Below are positions 43 through 5,484 of a stretch of DNA of 5,484 nt, in pieces. Under the pieces are notes generated by a model. It was given only the letters and a program-made list of their open reading frames with translations. It was not told the DNA's origin and searched no databases. Each line of letters begins with the position of its first letter. Positions within the stretch are counted from its first letter, which is position 1. The position numbers were made by a program, and so were the translations under genes. This stretch comes from a virus (Duplodnaviria > Heunggongvirae > Uroviricota > Caudoviricetes), in IMG/VR virus record IMGVR_UViG_2657244940_000006; one strand, written 5' to 3'.

Positions 43-567
43 TCAGACCGTGCGCATGGTGCTGATTACCAGCAGCACGGACAATGTCACCTCTGTAGAG
101 CGGTTTCCGCTGGGTGAGTTATGCCTGTTGAAAAAATCAACGATAGCGTGGAGCGCGACTGAGCGCATTGCGTCCTTTTCAAAAAGGATCTCATGGTACG
201 CACCTTTAATTACCAACGGCCGTCCTCCTTCGACAGGATGGCCCGCAGCGGTGCGTAGTTCACAAAAACGGTCGTGCATGCGGTTATCAACAAACTGATG
301 GTTTTCATTGATAATGCGGGACCAGCCATCAACGCCAACCACCGGAACGATGCCGTTCTGCTTGTCAGGGAAGGCGTAAATTTCTTTCGTCCAGGGATTA
401 AGGCCGTACTGGTTGGCGACGATCAACAATGCGATAAATTGCGCATCGCTGGCATCACCTTTAAATGCCGTCTGGCGAAGAGTGGTGATTAGTTCCTGTG
501 GGTCGACAGAATCCATGCCGACACGTTCAGCCAGCTTCCCTGCCAGCGTTGCGAGTGCTGTACTCAT
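43..567 (-). CDS. bet: Bet (Red-beta) single-strand annealing protein, N-terminal ~90 aa only; C-terminal ~85 aa unrelated to lambda Bet (chimeric or truncated bet, possibly a pseudogene)
   Basis: Residues 1-89 (MSTALATLAGKLAERVGMDSVDPQELITTLRQTAFKGDASDAQFIALLIVANQYGLNPWTKEIYAFPDKQNGIVPVVGVDGWSRIINEN) match my recollection of lambda Bet almost exactly; QF at 91-92 also agrees, then similarity is lost (junction about nt 290-300). ORF is 174 aa versus 261 aa for lambda Bet. Start lies 5 nt downstream of the gam stop, as in lambda. AGAGG Shine-Dalgarno-like motif upstream of the ATG. Confidence 0.6.
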   Translation of the reverse strand: MSTALATLAGKLAERVGMDSVDPQELITTLRQTAFKGDASDAQFIALLIVANQYGLNPWTKEIYAFPDKQNGIVPVVGVDGWSRIINENHQFVDNRMHDRFCELRTAAGHPVEGGRPLVIKGAYHEILFEKDAMRSVALHAIVDFFNRHNSPSGNRSTEVTLSVLLVISTMRTV

Positions 568-572
568 CCGTT

Positions 573-869
573 TTATACCTCTGAATCAATATTAATTTGG
601 TGACGGGCGATGGTTTCAGCCATGTAGCGGATGTGTTCTGCCATGCGTTCCTGAAAATCGACATCGTCATCAAATGCACGGGAAATAGCTTTTTTGCTGG
701 CCCCGTGACGTTGCAGATTATCGATGCATAGCGATTCAAACAGGTGTTGGGGCAGACCTTTTTCCAGGTCGTCTGCCAGCTCAGCTTCAGTTTCTTCACG
801 GGCAATTTGCTGGTAGTGTCGTGCCCATGACTGCTCTTCAATGCGATCGGGGATAAGCCAGGCATTCAT
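573..869 (-). CDS. gam: Host-nuclease (RecBCD) inhibitor Gam, short 98-aa form
   Basis: Protein [98 protein letters not shown] is near-identical over its length to the C-terminal 98 aa (GamS form) of lambda Gam as I recall it. Strong RBS GGAGGTGA about 8 nt upstream of the ATG. The ATG overlaps the stop of the upstream 690-aa gene (ATGA at 866..869). Confidence 0.9.
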
Positions 870-2938
870 GATTTATCACCTCCGAAATTTTCAAGCCTGT
901 TGGCAATCATGATGGCGATATCAGGGATTGCTGGCGCTGTGGCTATACATGCGGGGTTGGCGCACAAACCATAGACGGCGGCAATCACGAGCTGTCTTTT
1001 CCAGTCGAGAGTTACTGGCTCAGAATTGGCGTCATCGCCGGACGTATCACTGCCTGGCTCGTTCTGAACAACGGTTTCGCCCTCCTGAGCGGCATCAACA
1101 GAGTTTTCCTGAATGATCTTCTCCTCAGTTTGTGCTGAGTCTTCTCCATCAGCGGCGTCATTTTCTCCAAAAGTTTCTGTGTAAGTGCTATCGCCCATTA
1201 CCGCACTACAGTCAGGGCAGTTACCCCCGCCAGTCTGACCACAGACGCGGCAGTTTTTTTCCAGCTCCGGTTGCGCTACTGGCCCTGGCTGTTGCTCTTC
1301 TGGCCCGTTTTGTTGCGTATCCGGGCTGTTTTGTCCCGCTTCTGGGGCAATTTGTTCCACTTTGGACTGATTCTGGTCCTCAGTGTCGCGAGTCTGGATC
1401 CCCTTCACCCACTTCGGATCAGCAGGGTTACTGATGCCTTCAACGAATTCTCCACGCGAGGCAGCCAGTAATTTGTCGGCATCGACTGGATTTTTTGGGG
1501 GGATGTTTTCCCTGGCTTTATTGAGTTCCTCCCTCAGTTCCTGGTATTTCGTTTCTACAGATGAGACATTTTCCAGTGATTGCGTGTCCTCATTATGTTT
1601 AACTGGAATTTCTTCCACTGATTCAGGCGCTGCCTGTTCATTAGCCATTGTGTCCGATGCTTGTTGCTTTTCTTCATCGCCATGTTTTCCTTCTGCTGTT
1701 CCGCGCTGCGGCATCGGTGCTGATGAGCGACCGCAGGCAATTTCCACGATTTCCGGATCCGGGTTAGCGTGATCGGTTTCGGTCAACACTTTGTTGAGAT
1801 ATTCAGTCACGCGTGCCGGGATGGCCTCAATGCCGATTGGTGCTTCTTTCACGGAAGCCACCACAATGGCGCGGGAATAATCCAGCCCACCGGGCATGGC
1901 GATAAATTTGTCGCGAAAAACAGAAAAGGGCGGCTTATTCTCTGACACGATTTCTTCAACGCGTTTTGCGTGTGCTGGGTGCAGGTTATAAATATCCACA
2001 TCCATTGAACGGGCCAGAACGCCGGTGGCTACATCTCGTGCGAGTGATGTCTTATCATGTTTGAATCCTTCACCACGATCGGTAATATTTCCGCCGCCAG
2101 CGTTAGCACCGGAAGGCGTACGGGTAATGCCTGAAACATAATTTCCGTTCTGCCATTCTTTTGTCAGCAGGCCCTGATCAAGGTAGTCAGTTTTCATCCA
2201 GGTGGAAATGAACTTGTCGAATTCAGCCGGGCTGATGCGATGATTTGCAGAGTGGGGGAATGCTTTCCCTACAGATTCAGCCAGGCGACTAAGGTGATAG
2301 TTCGTCAGTTTATCCAGTTCATGATGCGCGGCGCGCACAGCAGTAAGCAGGCTCTGAAGGTAACTGTCCTCTGTGTCCATCTCCATACGGATCACGTTAT
2401 TGCGTTGTTCTGGTGTGGCATGATGCCGGTATTTTCCATCTTCATCTTTGCTGAATAAGAAGAGGTGAAGGAAGCGATGAGTAAGGCTCAGAGTGGCGAC
2501 GGGAATTTCACACTCAGAACAGTCATCGTCGCTGTCCGGGGATTCGCTTTTCTCCACATCATCCGGAATAGTTCCGTCCAGGTTATCGTTGTCATCGCCA
2601 GCAGTTGTGGCATCTTCACCGTTGATGTTGTCATCGAAGGGGATAGCCATCATGGTGATGCCATCGTTACCGCCTTTTTCATAGCGGTTGCAGAATTCAG
2701 TATCAAACACGCCTTCCGGTGGAAGGTCATTCACAACGGGTAAATGGACGCGGATGGGTTTTTTAAAATCCTCTTCGTCAAATCCGGCATCGTCCATTGC
2801 AGCAACACCGCGTGATATTGCAACCGATAATTTTTTTGCTGTGCGCCAGTAAAAACCACCTTTAATCCCAAGGCGTTTTCTGACTTTGTCATTTTTGGCT
2901 TCGTAATATAGTGCAATTTCTTCTTTATCAGCGTTCAT
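866..2938 (-). CDS. Large (690 aa) highly acidic hypothetical protein with CxxC-x7-CxxC zinc-ribbon-like motif and hydrophobic C-terminal segment; occupies the kil / ydfE position between ydfD and gam
   Basis: Uninterrupted 2073-nt ORF; ATG at 2936..2938 preceded by GAGG about 7 nt upstream; stop overlaps gam start. Composition: D/E-rich low-complexity tracts (aa ~100-145 and ~415-645), a central less biased segment (aa ~145-400), Cys563-x2-Cys566-x7-Cys574-x2-Cys577 (nt 1208..1252), a further CxxC at aa 140-143, and a hydrophobic stretch aa ~648-680. No family recognised from memory. Confidence 0.8.
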
Positions 2939-3030
2939 TGATAAACCTCATAACCATTTTAAGGATGAACAAATTCCTGCCATTGCTGGCATTTTTAATC
3001 CGTTGGTATGGCGTTAATATGGCTGGCGGG

Positions 3031-3219
3031 TTATCCAGCCGGTGTTTCGTTATTCAGGTACAGCGATACTTTTTTTAACGGGAGGCATTCACCGGGGATT
3101 TTTTGTTCGTCCCTTACCTGAATGCAGGATGACTTACTGTCATAAATTCCGGTAATCACATTCTGCGGCTCACCCGTTATAAGAAAAACGGTCATTATCA
3201 GTGCAAACGCTGAAGTCAC
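3031..3219 (-). CDS. ydfD: YdfD-like small membrane (lysis-associated) protein, 62 aa
   Basis: Immediately downstream of dicB with a 4-nt overlap (GTGA; GTG start at 3217..3219, GGAG about 9 nt upstream). Hydrophobic N-terminus (MTSAFALIMTVFLITG) consistent with a single transmembrane helix. Size and position match the K-12 Qin dicB-ydfD arrangement. The alternative ATG at 3193..3195 lacks an RBS. Confidence 0.55.
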   Translation of the reverse strand: MTSAFALIMTVFLITGEPQNVITGIYDSKSSCIQVRDEQKIPGECLPLKKVSLYLNNETPAG

Positions 3220-3404
3220 TGCTGTTCTCCGATAATACCAAGTTCAAGAAGGGCAATTCTGGAAAGTATGGAATTATCATTGAGAAGATAAGGTTCATAT
3301 TTTCTCATCTTAATGGCATCTTCAGTAAACTCCCGGTTACTGAGCAGAACTCCAATATCAAAACAACCTTCAGACGTATTAACGTTTGGTAATAACGTTT
3401 CCAT
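3216..3404 (-). CDS. dicB: Cell division inhibitor DicB homolog, 62 aa
   Basis: Protein METLLPNVNTSEGCFDIGVLLSNREFTEDAIKMRKYEPYLLNDNSILSRIALLELGIIGEQQ; the N-terminal ~33 aa closely match my recollection of K-12 DicB (MKTLLPNVNTSEGCFEIGV...TEDAI), the C-terminal third diverges. RBS GAGGA 7 nt upstream of the ATG at 3402..3404. The supplied ORF 3216..3551 is an artefactual N-terminal extension running through the dicF-dicB spacer. Confidence 0.85.
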   Translation of the reverse strand: METLLPNVNTSEGCFDIGVLLSNREFTEDAIKMRKYEPYLLNDNSILSRIALLELGIIGEQQ

Positions 3405-3575
3405 TATCGCGTCCTCAACAATGAATTTTGTGATGCAGTGCCTGGTGCCTCCAGGTGACGTTAACCAGTTAACAACTAACGCCGGGTCAGGGGACGATGA
3501 CTTTCCGTGACATCCTGTCGGTTTAACTGTTCCGCGTGCGCATAGCCGCATTCACCGCATCACAAAATTCACTTT

Positions 3576-3616
3576 AAAAAGGGCGGACATCAGCAATCGG
3601 CAAACCGATGTCCGCC
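3576..3616 (-). terminator. Rho-independent terminator hairpin (10-bp perfect stem GGCGGACAUC / GAUGUCCGCC, 15-nt loop, then C + U5) at the DicF-like RNA 3' end
   Basis: Seen directly: plus-strand 3582..3591 ggcggacatc and 3607..3616 gatgtccgcc are reverse complements; the T-run on the minus strand corresponds to plus-strand a-run 3576..3580. On the plus strand the hairpin is not followed by a T-run, so termination is orientation-specific. Confidence 0.65.
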
Positions 3617-3632
3617 AAGGGCTACACACAGC
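3576..3632 (-). ncRNA. dicF: DicF-like small RNA (divergent variant); 3' end defined by an intrinsic terminator; 5' end approximate
   Basis: Minus-strand sequence ...GUGUGUAGCCCUUGGCGGACAUCGGUUUGCCGAUUGCUGAUGUCCGCCCUUUUU, followed by AAAGTGAATTTTGTGATG...GGTGAATGCGGCT...GCGCACGCGGAACAG, which matches the dicF-dicB spacer of K-12 as I recall it. The RNA body keeps the UUGGCGG...CCGCCCUUUUU framework of DicF but differs internally. Lies about 170 nt upstream of dicB, as in Qin. Confidence 0.5.
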
Positions 3633-3699
3633 AATGTTGTTATTCACAACCGGAAGCGCACGGTCGAAGAAATCTAACGACAAGCCTTCAATGGGAAAG

Positions 3700-3855
3700 A
3701 GTCTTCGCCGTGCACTTTCGTGTTGTACCCTGGCTTTCAGGGTAATGTCTGTTCAGTAAACTGAGAGTGCCGGAACTTACCCGTGTCCGGCGCACGATCT
3801 CCACCTCACCCGTGGAGAACTCCTCAACTACAAACCCCGTAAGGAGAGTGAGTTT
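3700..3855 (+). promoter_or_regulatory. Putative promoter and structured 5' leader of the plus-strand small gene (two hairpins 3767..3793 and 3798..3818 upstream of the RBS)
   Basis: Seen in sequence: inverted repeats gtgccgga/tccggcgc (8-bp stem with one G-U, 11-nt loop) and tctccac/gtggaga (7-bp stem, 7-nt loop) followed by AAGGAGAG. Only weak sigma70-like hexamers (TTGTAC ... TAATGT with 14-nt spacing, about 3723..3748). Promoter assignment is speculative. Confidence 0.25.
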
Positions 3856-4065
3856 ATGACACAAGAAGAAAAAGTGATGTTTCTGATGCGGCTGGCTGTC
3901 GATACCTACAACACACAATTCAGGGAGAAAGATATACCTCAAAAGGCAGTTCCTGCCGCGGTAGATAAGGGCGGTGCTATTGCCGTATTTTACGATGCAT
4001 TTGAATCATTTTTTAATGAAAAACTCGACGCTGTTAGCGGCTTCGGAACATCGAGTAATAAATAA
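3856..4065 (+). CDS. Small hypothetical protein (69 aa), opposite orientation to the surrounding operon
   Basis: ATG at 3856 preceded by a strong Shine-Dalgarno AAGGAGAG (3841..3848) with 7-nt spacing; TAA stop at 4063..4065. Protein MTQEEKVMFLMRLAVDTYNTQFREKDIPQKAVPAAVDKGGAIAVFYDAFESFFNEKLDAVSGFGTSSNK has no recognised family. Its 3' end overlaps by 32 nt the 3' end of the convergent minus-strand ORF 4034..4393. Confidence 0.6.
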   Translation: MTQEEKVMFLMRLAVDTYNTQFREKDIPQKAVPAAVDKGGAIAVFYDAFESFFNEKLDAVSGFGTSSNK

Positions 4066-4393
4066 CGTTCATTACGGTTCTTAAACAACAATCAGTGGGC
4101 TTGATGTTGTTCTTTTCAAGCTCACTTGCCATCACTTCCATTATTCTTGCACTTACACGAATTATTTGGTGGCTGTAAGCGATGCAACTGTCGCTGATAT
4201 TGCTGTTTATTTCTATTACTTCATTTTCACCATTAGCATCAACTTCGGATGCGCTGTTTTCATTATCCTGTTTCAGTGCTTTTTCTGCCATCTGGATGCG
4301 TGTCAGCGTTGCGGAATTTGGGCTAAGTCGATAAACCTGTCTGGCATCTTCCAGAAGCAGGGCGATAATGTGCTTCAGTTCTGTTTCGTTCAT
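4034..4393 (-). CDS. Hypothetical early protein (~119 aa from ATG at 4391..4393)
   Basis: The supplied ORF 4034..4414 begins with a TTG; the first ATG (4391..4393) has GGAG about 8 nt upstream. Acidic central tract (DNENSASEVDANGENEVIEINSN). The C-terminal end overlaps the plus-strand gene, so the true 3' end is uncertain. Confidence 0.5.
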   Translation of the reverse strand: MNETELKHIIALLLEDARQVYRLSPNSATLTRIQMAEKALKQDNENSASEVDANGENEVIEINSNISDSCIAYSHQIIRVSARIMEVMASELEKNNIKPTDCCLRTVMNVIYYSMFRSR

Positions 4394-4424
4394 AGTTAAC
4401 TCCGGTAGTTGCAATTTATTAATA

Positions 4425-4730
4425 TCAGGCGGTCAGCTCTTTAAGCTTCTGAACTGCTTTATTCATTTCATCCATACAGTCGATGAATTCGTCCAGTTTA
4501 AGCTGCATTTTTCCGGCGGCCTGAAGAATTTCAAGTTTTAAGGGCGCAAGTTTTTTGTTGAATGCATCATCTTCCTGGCGTTTTTTCTCCGCAATTTCGG
4601 CGGCTTTCAGCAATTCTTCAGCCTGTTTTCTGAGTATTTCTGGTGAAGGTGAAACTGCTTTGAGGTTATTCATTTCAGGTTCCTGTTGTTGCAGAATTAA
4701 TTTGTTGCATTCTCTGCGTGAGCGTTTCAT
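4425..4730 (-). CDS. Hypothetical coiled-coil-like protein (101 aa)
   Basis: ATG at 4728..4730 overlaps the stop of the upstream gene (ATGA at 4727..4730), suggesting translational coupling. Sequence rich in K/E/A/L/Q heptad-like segments (EILRKQAEELLKAAEIAEKKRQ...). Alternative internal ATG at 4671..4673 with AGGA upstream. Confidence 0.6.
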   Translation of the reverse strand: MKRSRRECNKLILQQQEPEMNNLKAVSPSPEILRKQAEELLKAAEIAEKKRQEDDAFNKKLAPLKLEILQAAGKMQLKLDEFIDCMDEMNKAVQKLKELTA

Positions 4731-5137
4731 TGCAGATTCGCACTTCTTGCAATAAATGGCTCTCCCGTCACGCTTGCTGGCATCTGAATAAAAATCATTG
4801 ACTGATTTTGTCTGCCCGCATCTGGTACATAATTTTGATTGAAGGTCCTTAATGATTGTGACGTTTCCTTCCCGCTTGGGATATCCATATTTTTGTGGCG
4901 TAAAAAGGTTACTCCGTTACCAGAACCTTCTTTTCTGACCTTAAATACAATGATGCTTTCCCGTTTATCGATAAAATCGATGAGCTGGTTTCTCTCCTTT
5001 CCTGACAGTTCGGCAAATGTCTTAACTTTTTTAGTAACCTCAGTAAGGCGAACGCCGTCAGGCATTTTTTCAACGAAGTTTTTAATCTCTGCAAGCGGAC
5101 GCCATAATTTTTGCGGCAAAACTGAAGGCGTGGTCAT
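4727..5137 (-). CDS. Hypothetical early protein (136 aa from ATG at 5135..5137)
   Basis: The supplied ORF starts at TTG 5138..5140; the adjacent ATG at 5135..5137 has a strong RBS GAGGTGA about 5 nt upstream and lies 3 nt after the upstream gene stop (5141..5143). No family recognised. Confidence 0.6.
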   Translation of the reverse strand: MTTPSVLPQKLWRPLAEIKNFVEKMPDGVRLTEVTKKVKTFAELSGKERNQLIDFIDKRESIIVFKVRKEGSGNGVTFLRHKNMDIPSGKETSQSLRTFNQNYVPDAGRQNQSMIFIQMPASVTGEPFIARSANLQ

Positions 5138-5140
5138 CAA

Positions 5141-5484
5141 TCACCTCGCCGTCAGTTGTTTTGATTTCCGGTAGCCTGCCGCGTAAATGGCTACGTTTGG
5201 AAGACATACACCAGTTTCTGGTTGCTTATGTCCAAACTCATTCGCGTACACAATGGCTGCTCGCTCCAGATTGCGTCTGTATTCTTTCTGTTGCCAGATC
5301 ACGTCCTGTGCCATGAACTTAATTGGCTTAGCGTCTTCTATGCGCTCAGGCGTTTCGTGAGTACCTTTAGCCTGAATCTGCGCTCTGCTTAGAGTAGGGC
5401 GGTGTAATACTTCTGAACTTATTGCTTCTTCGCGGGCCAGCACGCCGTTAGCTAATGCCTTTGCCTTTAAACGCACACGACGAT
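5141..5484 (-). CDS. Hypothetical protein, 5'-truncated by the window edge (C-terminal >=111 aa)
   Basis: Reading frame is open to the window end at 5484; the supplied start at 5474..5476 is a GTG and probably internal. Stop at 5141..5143 is immediately followed by the RBS of the next gene. Confidence 0.5.
   Translation of the reverse strand, partial: RRVRLKAKALANGVLAREEAISSEVLHRPTLSRAQIQAKGTHETPERIEDAKPIKFMAQDVIWQQKEYRRNLERAAIVYANEFGHKQPETGVCLPNVAIYAAGYRKSKQLTAR

Follow-up and report, generated by a model that had tools for sequence, protein, structure and literature searches.

Organization of the window

The window, a stretch of 5,484 nt, was a mosaic of three parts: a fragment of a P2-like tail-fibre gene (gpH, nt 1–91), the 3' end of the Escherichia coli gene pldB (nt 89–288) and a lambdoid early-left region with bet, gam and further genes up to N (nt 291–5484). 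A minus-strand open reading frame (ORF) of 174 aa crossed both joints, with its ATG at nt 567 and its TGA at nt 45–43. The ribosome-binding site of the broken bet gene was located inside the 3' end of gam, the same as in intact prophages. The coordinates of all features are compiled in Table 1.

Table 1. Features of the chimeric ORF, its joints and the adjacent prophage genes
Feature	Position (nt)	Strand	Basis or description
Chimeric ORF	43–567	minus	174 aa + stop: Bet (1–92, Q90H), PldB (273–340), 14 antisense gpH residues, TGA
bet codons 1–92, native start codon	292–567	minus	tblastn, 98.9% identity to intact Bet
pldB codons 273–340, 204 nt, native frame, no stop codon	88–291	minus	alignment and translation
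14 sense codons + TGA, antisense through the gpH fragment; accidental ORF C-terminus	43–87	minus	translation
P2-like (Peduoviridae) tail-fibre gene H, internal codons 108–137	1–91	plus	98.9% identity; Pfam PF12571
Junction J1 (gpH/pldB)	89–91		3-nt microhomology ACC common to both parents (base-by-base alignment)
Junction J2 (bet/pldB)	288–291		parents alignable across approximately 1–4 nt of imperfect microhomology
Private substitution G (natural gpH allele A)	86		3 nt from J1
Private substitution A (natural bet allele C), giving Q90H	298		7 nt from J2
gam, intact, 98 aa	573–869	minus	Pfam Gam 1–98 of 98, E 4.8e-65
690-aa 'RecE family' ORF	866–2938	minus	upstream of gam; Exonuc_VIII Pfam over residues 56–197

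The sequence from nt 288 to 5484 was collinear with Stx-phage-like prophages, including those of E. coli O104:H4, phage PhiR5_2 and phiSTEC1589-Stx1c. From the right end of the window, the minus-strand order was N, a hypothetical gene, a DicB/kil-type gene, a DUF1482 gene, the 690-aa 'RecE family' ORF, gam and bet. The 690-aa ORF was used as a lineage marker to find intact relatives. Many E. coli contigs encoded the exact protein; on each, the genes after it were gam, an intact bet (261 aa), exo, a DUF4222 gene and an integrase gene, and the prophage was integrated at ynfG or wrbA. Against the closest such relative (L006, GCA_010686555.1, integrated at wrbA and with an intact 261-aa bet), nt 291–5484 were 99.98% identical, with a single mismatch in 5194 nt, located at nt 298. 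The chromosomal flank of L006 matched B2 strains such as NC101. The gam gene, predicted originally to be intact, indeed covered its full profile and had no nucleotide difference from that of L006; the broken bet followed it directly in the same operon, which is of the pL type. The genes int and xis and the attL site, which follow beyond bet in the intact relatives, were all absent from the window. From this absence we infer that they were lost and that the prophage is hence unable to excise.

Several further observations were made in this region. The 690-aa ORF is publicly labelled 'RecE family exodeoxyribonuclease', with its Exonuc_VIII match limited to residues 56–197; the remainder was largely acidic and of low complexity, with a CxxC...CxxC motif near residue 590. 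In many Stx-like prophages this ORF occurs between the DUF1482 gene and gam. At nt 4425–5140 (minus), a gene of 237 aa in relatives (L005 7801–8514) was split into ORFs of 137 and 101 aa by a frameshift near codon 81. Since L006 has the same lesion, this frameshift predates the bet event. L006 itself had a frameshift in exo after approximately codon 158 (13154–13900), which suggests that the Red module was already decaying in this lineage, or an assembly error. The N antiterminator gene (nt 5141–5484, minus; PF25694 match) was truncated at the right end of the window. If both ends sit in repeats of the source genome, the window may represent an entire short-read contig.

The Bet remnant

As proposed from the sequence, the N-terminal residues of the ORF were those of lambda Bet. 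Residues 1–92 were identical to lambda Redβ (PDB 7UJL) except for Q90H, with the identity stopping at F92, and were 91/92 identical to the 261-aa Bet of the intact prophages, again with Q90H as the sole change. The alignment of 7UJL to the ORF covered residues 1–92 only, and the match to the RecT Pfam profile (PF03837) was restricted to positions 5–77 of 198. The annealing domain (approximately positions 1–198 of the RecT profile, or approximately residues 1–177 of Redβ) was therefore incomplete. Searches with Bet residues 93–261 and with lambda-type Exo against the six frames of the window (tblastn) gave nothing with an E-value below 1. The claim that no reading frame resembles Bet after the junction was thus borne out, and residues 93–174 aligned with no Bet/RecT subfamily. 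It had also been suggested to look for exo beyond the start of the window; no Exo was detected in the window itself, and the sequence at its left end was the gpH fragment.

In Redβ, the DNA contacts with the template strand are made by R128, W143, H153, K154 and R161, and the finger loop comprises residues 126–142 (PMC9512822). All of these are located beyond residue 92 and were missing from the ORF, in line with the expectation that a 174-aa product would be unlikely to function as a recombinase. The Bet region after residue 177 and the downstream gene for the partner exonuclease were both missing from the window as well. The C-terminal region of Bet binds Exo. The fusion has neither the annealing groove nor the Exo-binding domain of Bet, and it also lacks the catalytic serine of PldB. 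Because the start codon and ribosome-binding site of bet were retained, the fused ORF is probably translated when pL is derepressed. Its 174-aa product is best treated as that of a pseudogene. With bet broken and exo missing from the window, the prophage is predicted to be Red-deficient.

The pldB segment and the open reading frame

The original prediction placed an in-frame recombination junction near nt 290–300, by a mosaic boundary or a deletion that fused bet to another coding sequence. Base-by-base alignment located the junction at nt 288–291, and the fusion partner was identified by BLAST of nt 1–300 as the 3' end of E. coli pldB, in its native frame and with 100% identity over 200 nt. 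Of the two proposed routes, the mosaic boundary stood, in the form of a three-way mosaic with pldB and then gpH, and a simple deletion did not. A second junction at nt 89–91, to the left of which the tail-fibre gene lies on the opposite strand, had not been anticipated.

In a megablast of nt 1–300 against 5426 complete E. coli genomes, every genome matched in the core gene pldB, over nt 89–291. The match in E. coli Nissle 1917 was the 3' end of pldB (lysophospholipase L2), on the same strand as bet, and nt 89–288 were 100% identical to it, with 0 differences in 200 nt. Residues 93–160 of the ORF corresponded exactly to PldB residues 273–340 in the frame of pldB itself. The nucleophile of PldB (Ser139, in the motif AHSMGG) is located upstream of residue 273 and was missing from the fusion. 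With only residues 273–340 present the hydrolase fold was incomplete, and no hydrolase match was obtained with Pfam.

The extent of the ORF follows from this arrangement. An open stretch of approximately 85 codons after the Bet part had been judged unlikely by chance; on translation, 68 of the 82 extra codons were genuine terminal pldB codons, and the ORF stays open past bet because these are read in the pldB frame. Since the stop codon of pldB is missing, the reading runs 14 codons further, antisense in gpH. The pldB codons explain the open frame and make a statistical argument unnecessary. An in-frame join of bet and pldB has a one-in-three chance, and the 174-aa ORF is a by-product.

The pldB segment also carries a regulatory site. 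Pairing of SgrS and cleavage by RNase E, which regulate yigL, take place at +935–955 of pldB (PMC5286369). This site mapped to nt 153–173 of the window (minus), with the sequence ACGCAATGCGCTCAGTCGCGC. A pL transcript through the fusion would carry the SgrS target. An RNA-templated origin of the segment, from a processed 'pldB-yigL mRNA, was considered and rejected: the SgrS/RNase E site is inside the piece, and nothing else supported such an origin. A role for Chi was likewise rejected, since the Chi-like sequence GCGTGGTGG at the pldB breakpoint differs from Chi at two positions and is oriented such that it would not protect the fragment that was kept.

A second chimera with the end of PldB was observed on an unrelated contig (L014 567–1337, Logan SRR19193832; P0097), where GlnQ residues 1–184 were joined to PldB residues 269–340, followed by yigL-bioP-metR-metE. 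Its breakpoint was located 18 nt upstream of the pldB breakpoint in the window and had a microhomology of approximately 8 nt (GCTGAAGA). A recombination hotspot in pldB was considered on this ground; the microhomology was a different one from that in the window, and the proximity was judged a coincidence.

The tail-fibre segment

Nt 1–91 were 98.9% identical to P2-like prophages and to phage records of the Peduoviridae type with lengths of 33–47 kb. The 30 encoded residues aligned with positions 108–137 of 150 of the tail-collar profile PF12571. The gene was cut at codon 137 by J1 and also by the left end of the window, with the 5' part of gpH beyond it. Among 1361 E. coli genomes with a match, none had a 91/91 match to nt 1–91. 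The window begins inside gpH; about a quarter of E. coli genomes have this gene, in P2-like prophages.

Joints and adjacent substitutions

The window differed from its parents at three positions only (nt 86, 289 and 298), none of them more than 7 nt away from a joint. Away from the joints there were 0 differences in the 200 nt of pldB and 0 in approximately 5186 nt of prophage. Among IMG/VR viral contigs, a 24-mer with G at nt 86 had 0 matches versus at least 120 for A, and the A allele at nt 298 had 0 matches versus 39 for C. Residue 90, which is changed by the latter substitution, was Q in 7/7 retrieved Bet homologue sequences, and the matches spanning it among the best 120 of 6030 homologues reached at most 99% identity. 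The base at nt 289, inside J2, does not match pldB and gives no clean match to bet either. Such a cluster of changes beside the joints would be expected after error-prone synthesis during repair or template switching, and it does not fit neutral divergence.

At both joints, IS ends, target duplications, direct or inverted repeats and att sites were looked for and none were found. The non-homologous parents shared few bases there, as in a scar of microhomology-mediated illegitimate recombination.

Occurrence of the joints and of other Bet chimeras

No record covered either joint in BLAST searches of the 5426 complete E. coli genomes, phage records and plasmids, and an exact-match scan of GTDB species representatives, JGI metagenomes and IMG/VR gave nothing for either. 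The 174-aa protein was not found by exact look-up in an index of 153 billion genes. Among the best 120 of 6030 homologues, matches were to the Bet half or the PldB half, never to both as a Bet-PldB fusion; a single one spanned the junction (P0001, 95% of the query, 65% identity) and was a different Bet chimera, and the other Bet matches ended soon after residue 92. Because neither joint was found elsewhere, the event would be recent and private to its source, or an artefact. This three-way mosaic is new to the databases, and a prophage pseudogene formed by illegitimate recombination is of a known kind.

Truncated or fused Bet ORFs were recurrent in public E. coli assemblies. They included P0013 and other forms of 155 aa, P0007, P0031, P0048 and P0043. 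The 155-aa frameshift form was present on many contigs, and other fusions joined Bet to integrase, DUF551 and YqaJ domains. The bet gene appears to be disrupted often as prophages decay.

Origin of the rearrangement

We consider it probable that a lambdoid prophage in an E. coli of B2 type underwent microhomology-mediated illegitimate recombination with a templated insertion of 204 nt of pldB, and that the locus is the scar of this event. From N through the RecE-like gene and gam, the early-left operon is intact up to bet codon 92, where the sequence switches to pldB. The 204-nt copy of the pldB 3' end would have been taken as filler between two unrelated ends, and a second switch at the last pldB codon would have led into the middle of the P2-like tail-fibre gene in the opposite orientation. 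Most economically, this may have been a single break-repair or template-switch event, of the alternative end-joining or MMBIR type, in which each joint would be flanked by point changes from error-prone synthesis. The same product would also be expected from two rearrangements in succession.

We infer the repair pathway from its footprint alone. In E. coli alternative end-joining, 96% of translocation junctions had a microhomology of 2–12 bp (PMC11297215). A common origin of the three parts in one cell is plausible on the basis of allele and flank matches: the pldB allele was that of the B2 strain Nissle, and the flank of L006 matched B2 strains. Compared with what has been reported, a templated filler of 204 nt copied from a third locus is on the unusual side. 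In a more specific version, which is possible and which we put forward tentatively, the lambdoid prophage broke while induced or replicating, and an MMBIR-like multi-step event at the broken end took exactly 204 nt of pldB as template before jumping to a P2-like prophage, each switch leaving a point mutation no more than 7 nt away. The window contains only 91 nt to the left of J1, which limits the context available to place the locus in a chromosome or a phage genome, and to tell a duplicate of pldB from the only copy.

The main rival is a chimera of the sequencing library or the assembly, in which fragments of gpH, pldB and bet from one DNA preparation were joined in vitro, by ligation or by a template switch in the amplification step, and the organism itself has no such locus. 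We regard this as unlikely, though it has more in its favour than the other alternatives. Natural bacterial rearrangements do not usually bring three unlinked loci together within 200 nt, and a chimeric library molecule would look the same; both joints were unique to the window across the collections searched, the window ends 91 nt past J1, as a contig end might, and the three parents were plausibly together in one DNA preparation of a B2 E. coli. Graph assemblers, however, need shared k-mers, and the parents have no more than 4 nt in common at the joints. The near error-free consensus (the one mismatch in 5194 nt to L006) implies a good read depth, a 204-nt internal piece with two clean joints is atypical of long-read chimeras, and substitutions beside the joints would be anticipated after error-prone repair but not after ligation. 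No one of these arguments settles the matter. An aberrant excision of the lambda-bio or lambda-gal type, by which host DNA next to an att site replaced int-xis-exo and part of bet, is very improbable. Its appeal lies in the order of tail gene, host DNA and truncated red region, which is that of a lambda-bio-type genome. The captured host DNA is not the flank of a prophage att site, however: the closest intact relatives were integrated at wrbA or ynfG and not at pldB, and the pldB-yigL junction was uninterrupted in 5426/5426 complete E. coli genomes. Moreover, the host DNA amounts to merely 204 nt, and the tail-fibre piece is from a P2-like myovirus rather than a lambdoid phage and is cut mid-gene with no att sequence. 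The uninterrupted pldB-yigL junction likewise led us to reject a local deletion in a P2-like prophage beside pldB. As no known att site is located at the pldB end, this local deletion and lambda-bio-type excision were both ruled out as working explanations.

A selected functional fusion, either a dominant-negative or decoy Bet fragment or an RNA element with the SgrS site, has a slightly smaller probability still. The ORF keeps the translation signals of bet within the pL operon, its frame is open through the entire pldB piece, and this piece holds the SgrS/RNase E site (PMC5286369). Against this, the 100% nucleotide identity to the host allele implies an event too recent for selection to have acted, there was no second occurrence in the collections searched, both parent domains are incomplete, and the one-in-three prior for an in-frame join makes the open frame unremarkable. 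That the ORF encodes a divergent but intact Bet/RecT annealase we consider next to impossible: its N-terminal 92 residues fit such a protein and nothing beyond them does, as residues 93–160 are identical to PldB 273–340, the RecT profile match stops at position 77 of 198, and the sole junction-spanning homologue among the best 120 of 6030 is itself another Bet chimera. The microhomology-mediated scar remains the reading we prefer.

Implications

For annotation, the ORF should be labelled as a bet pseudogene or fusion remnant and not as a Bet-family recombinase. The prophage should be recorded as Red-deficient; it is probably also unable to excise. The locus is not evidence of a new protein family but of the usual prophage decay, with a filler that is out of the ordinary. 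It is mildly instructive as a scar in which a distant core gene supplied a short templated filler, the joints have microhomology and mutations are located beside them. If real, it is a case of a prophage that was inactivated through end-joining or template-switch repair and not through a simple deletion; if the MMBIR-like reading is true, it would be a rarely documented wild case of mutagenic break repair with templated insertion in E. coli. No larger question is opened or settled by the bet-pldB scar.

Comparison with known systems

The ORF shared with lambda Redβ/Bet residues 1–92 (Q90H aside) and its place after gam in the pL operon. Unlike Redβ, it had no residues 93–261, which comprise the remaining annealing domain with the DNA contacts and the finger loop, and the C-terminal region. 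With E. coli PldB, an α/β hydrolase, it shared the final 68 residues (273–340), identical and in the native frame, with 100% DNA identity over 200 nt. In contrast to PldB, this piece was without residues 1–272, including Ser139, had lost its stop codon and was located outside the pldB-yigL locus.

The joints resembled E. coli junctions of the alternative end-joining or MMBIR type in their short microhomology, the absence of site-specific elements, the templated insertion and the nearby point changes; they differed in that the pathway behind the window is a putative one, read from its footprint. With lambda-bio and lambda-gal transducing genomes, the window had in common host DNA in place of the int-to-red region, adjoining late or tail genes. 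In the window, however, the host piece was tiny and next to no known att site, and the tail gene was from an unrelated P2-like phage.

Other chimeras of bet in E. coli prophages (the Bet-integrase fusion P0048, the Bet-DUF551 fusion P0031, P0007, P0001 and the 155-aa forms) likewise had the N-terminus of Bet followed by unrelated sequence, as a result of deletion or rearrangement; such decay is routine in prophages. Their identifiable partners were of phage type (integrase, DUF551, HTH), which is what deletions inside a prophage would give. In the fusion described here, bet was instead joined to 204 nt from a distant core gene of the host, and these to a fragment from a different type of phage.
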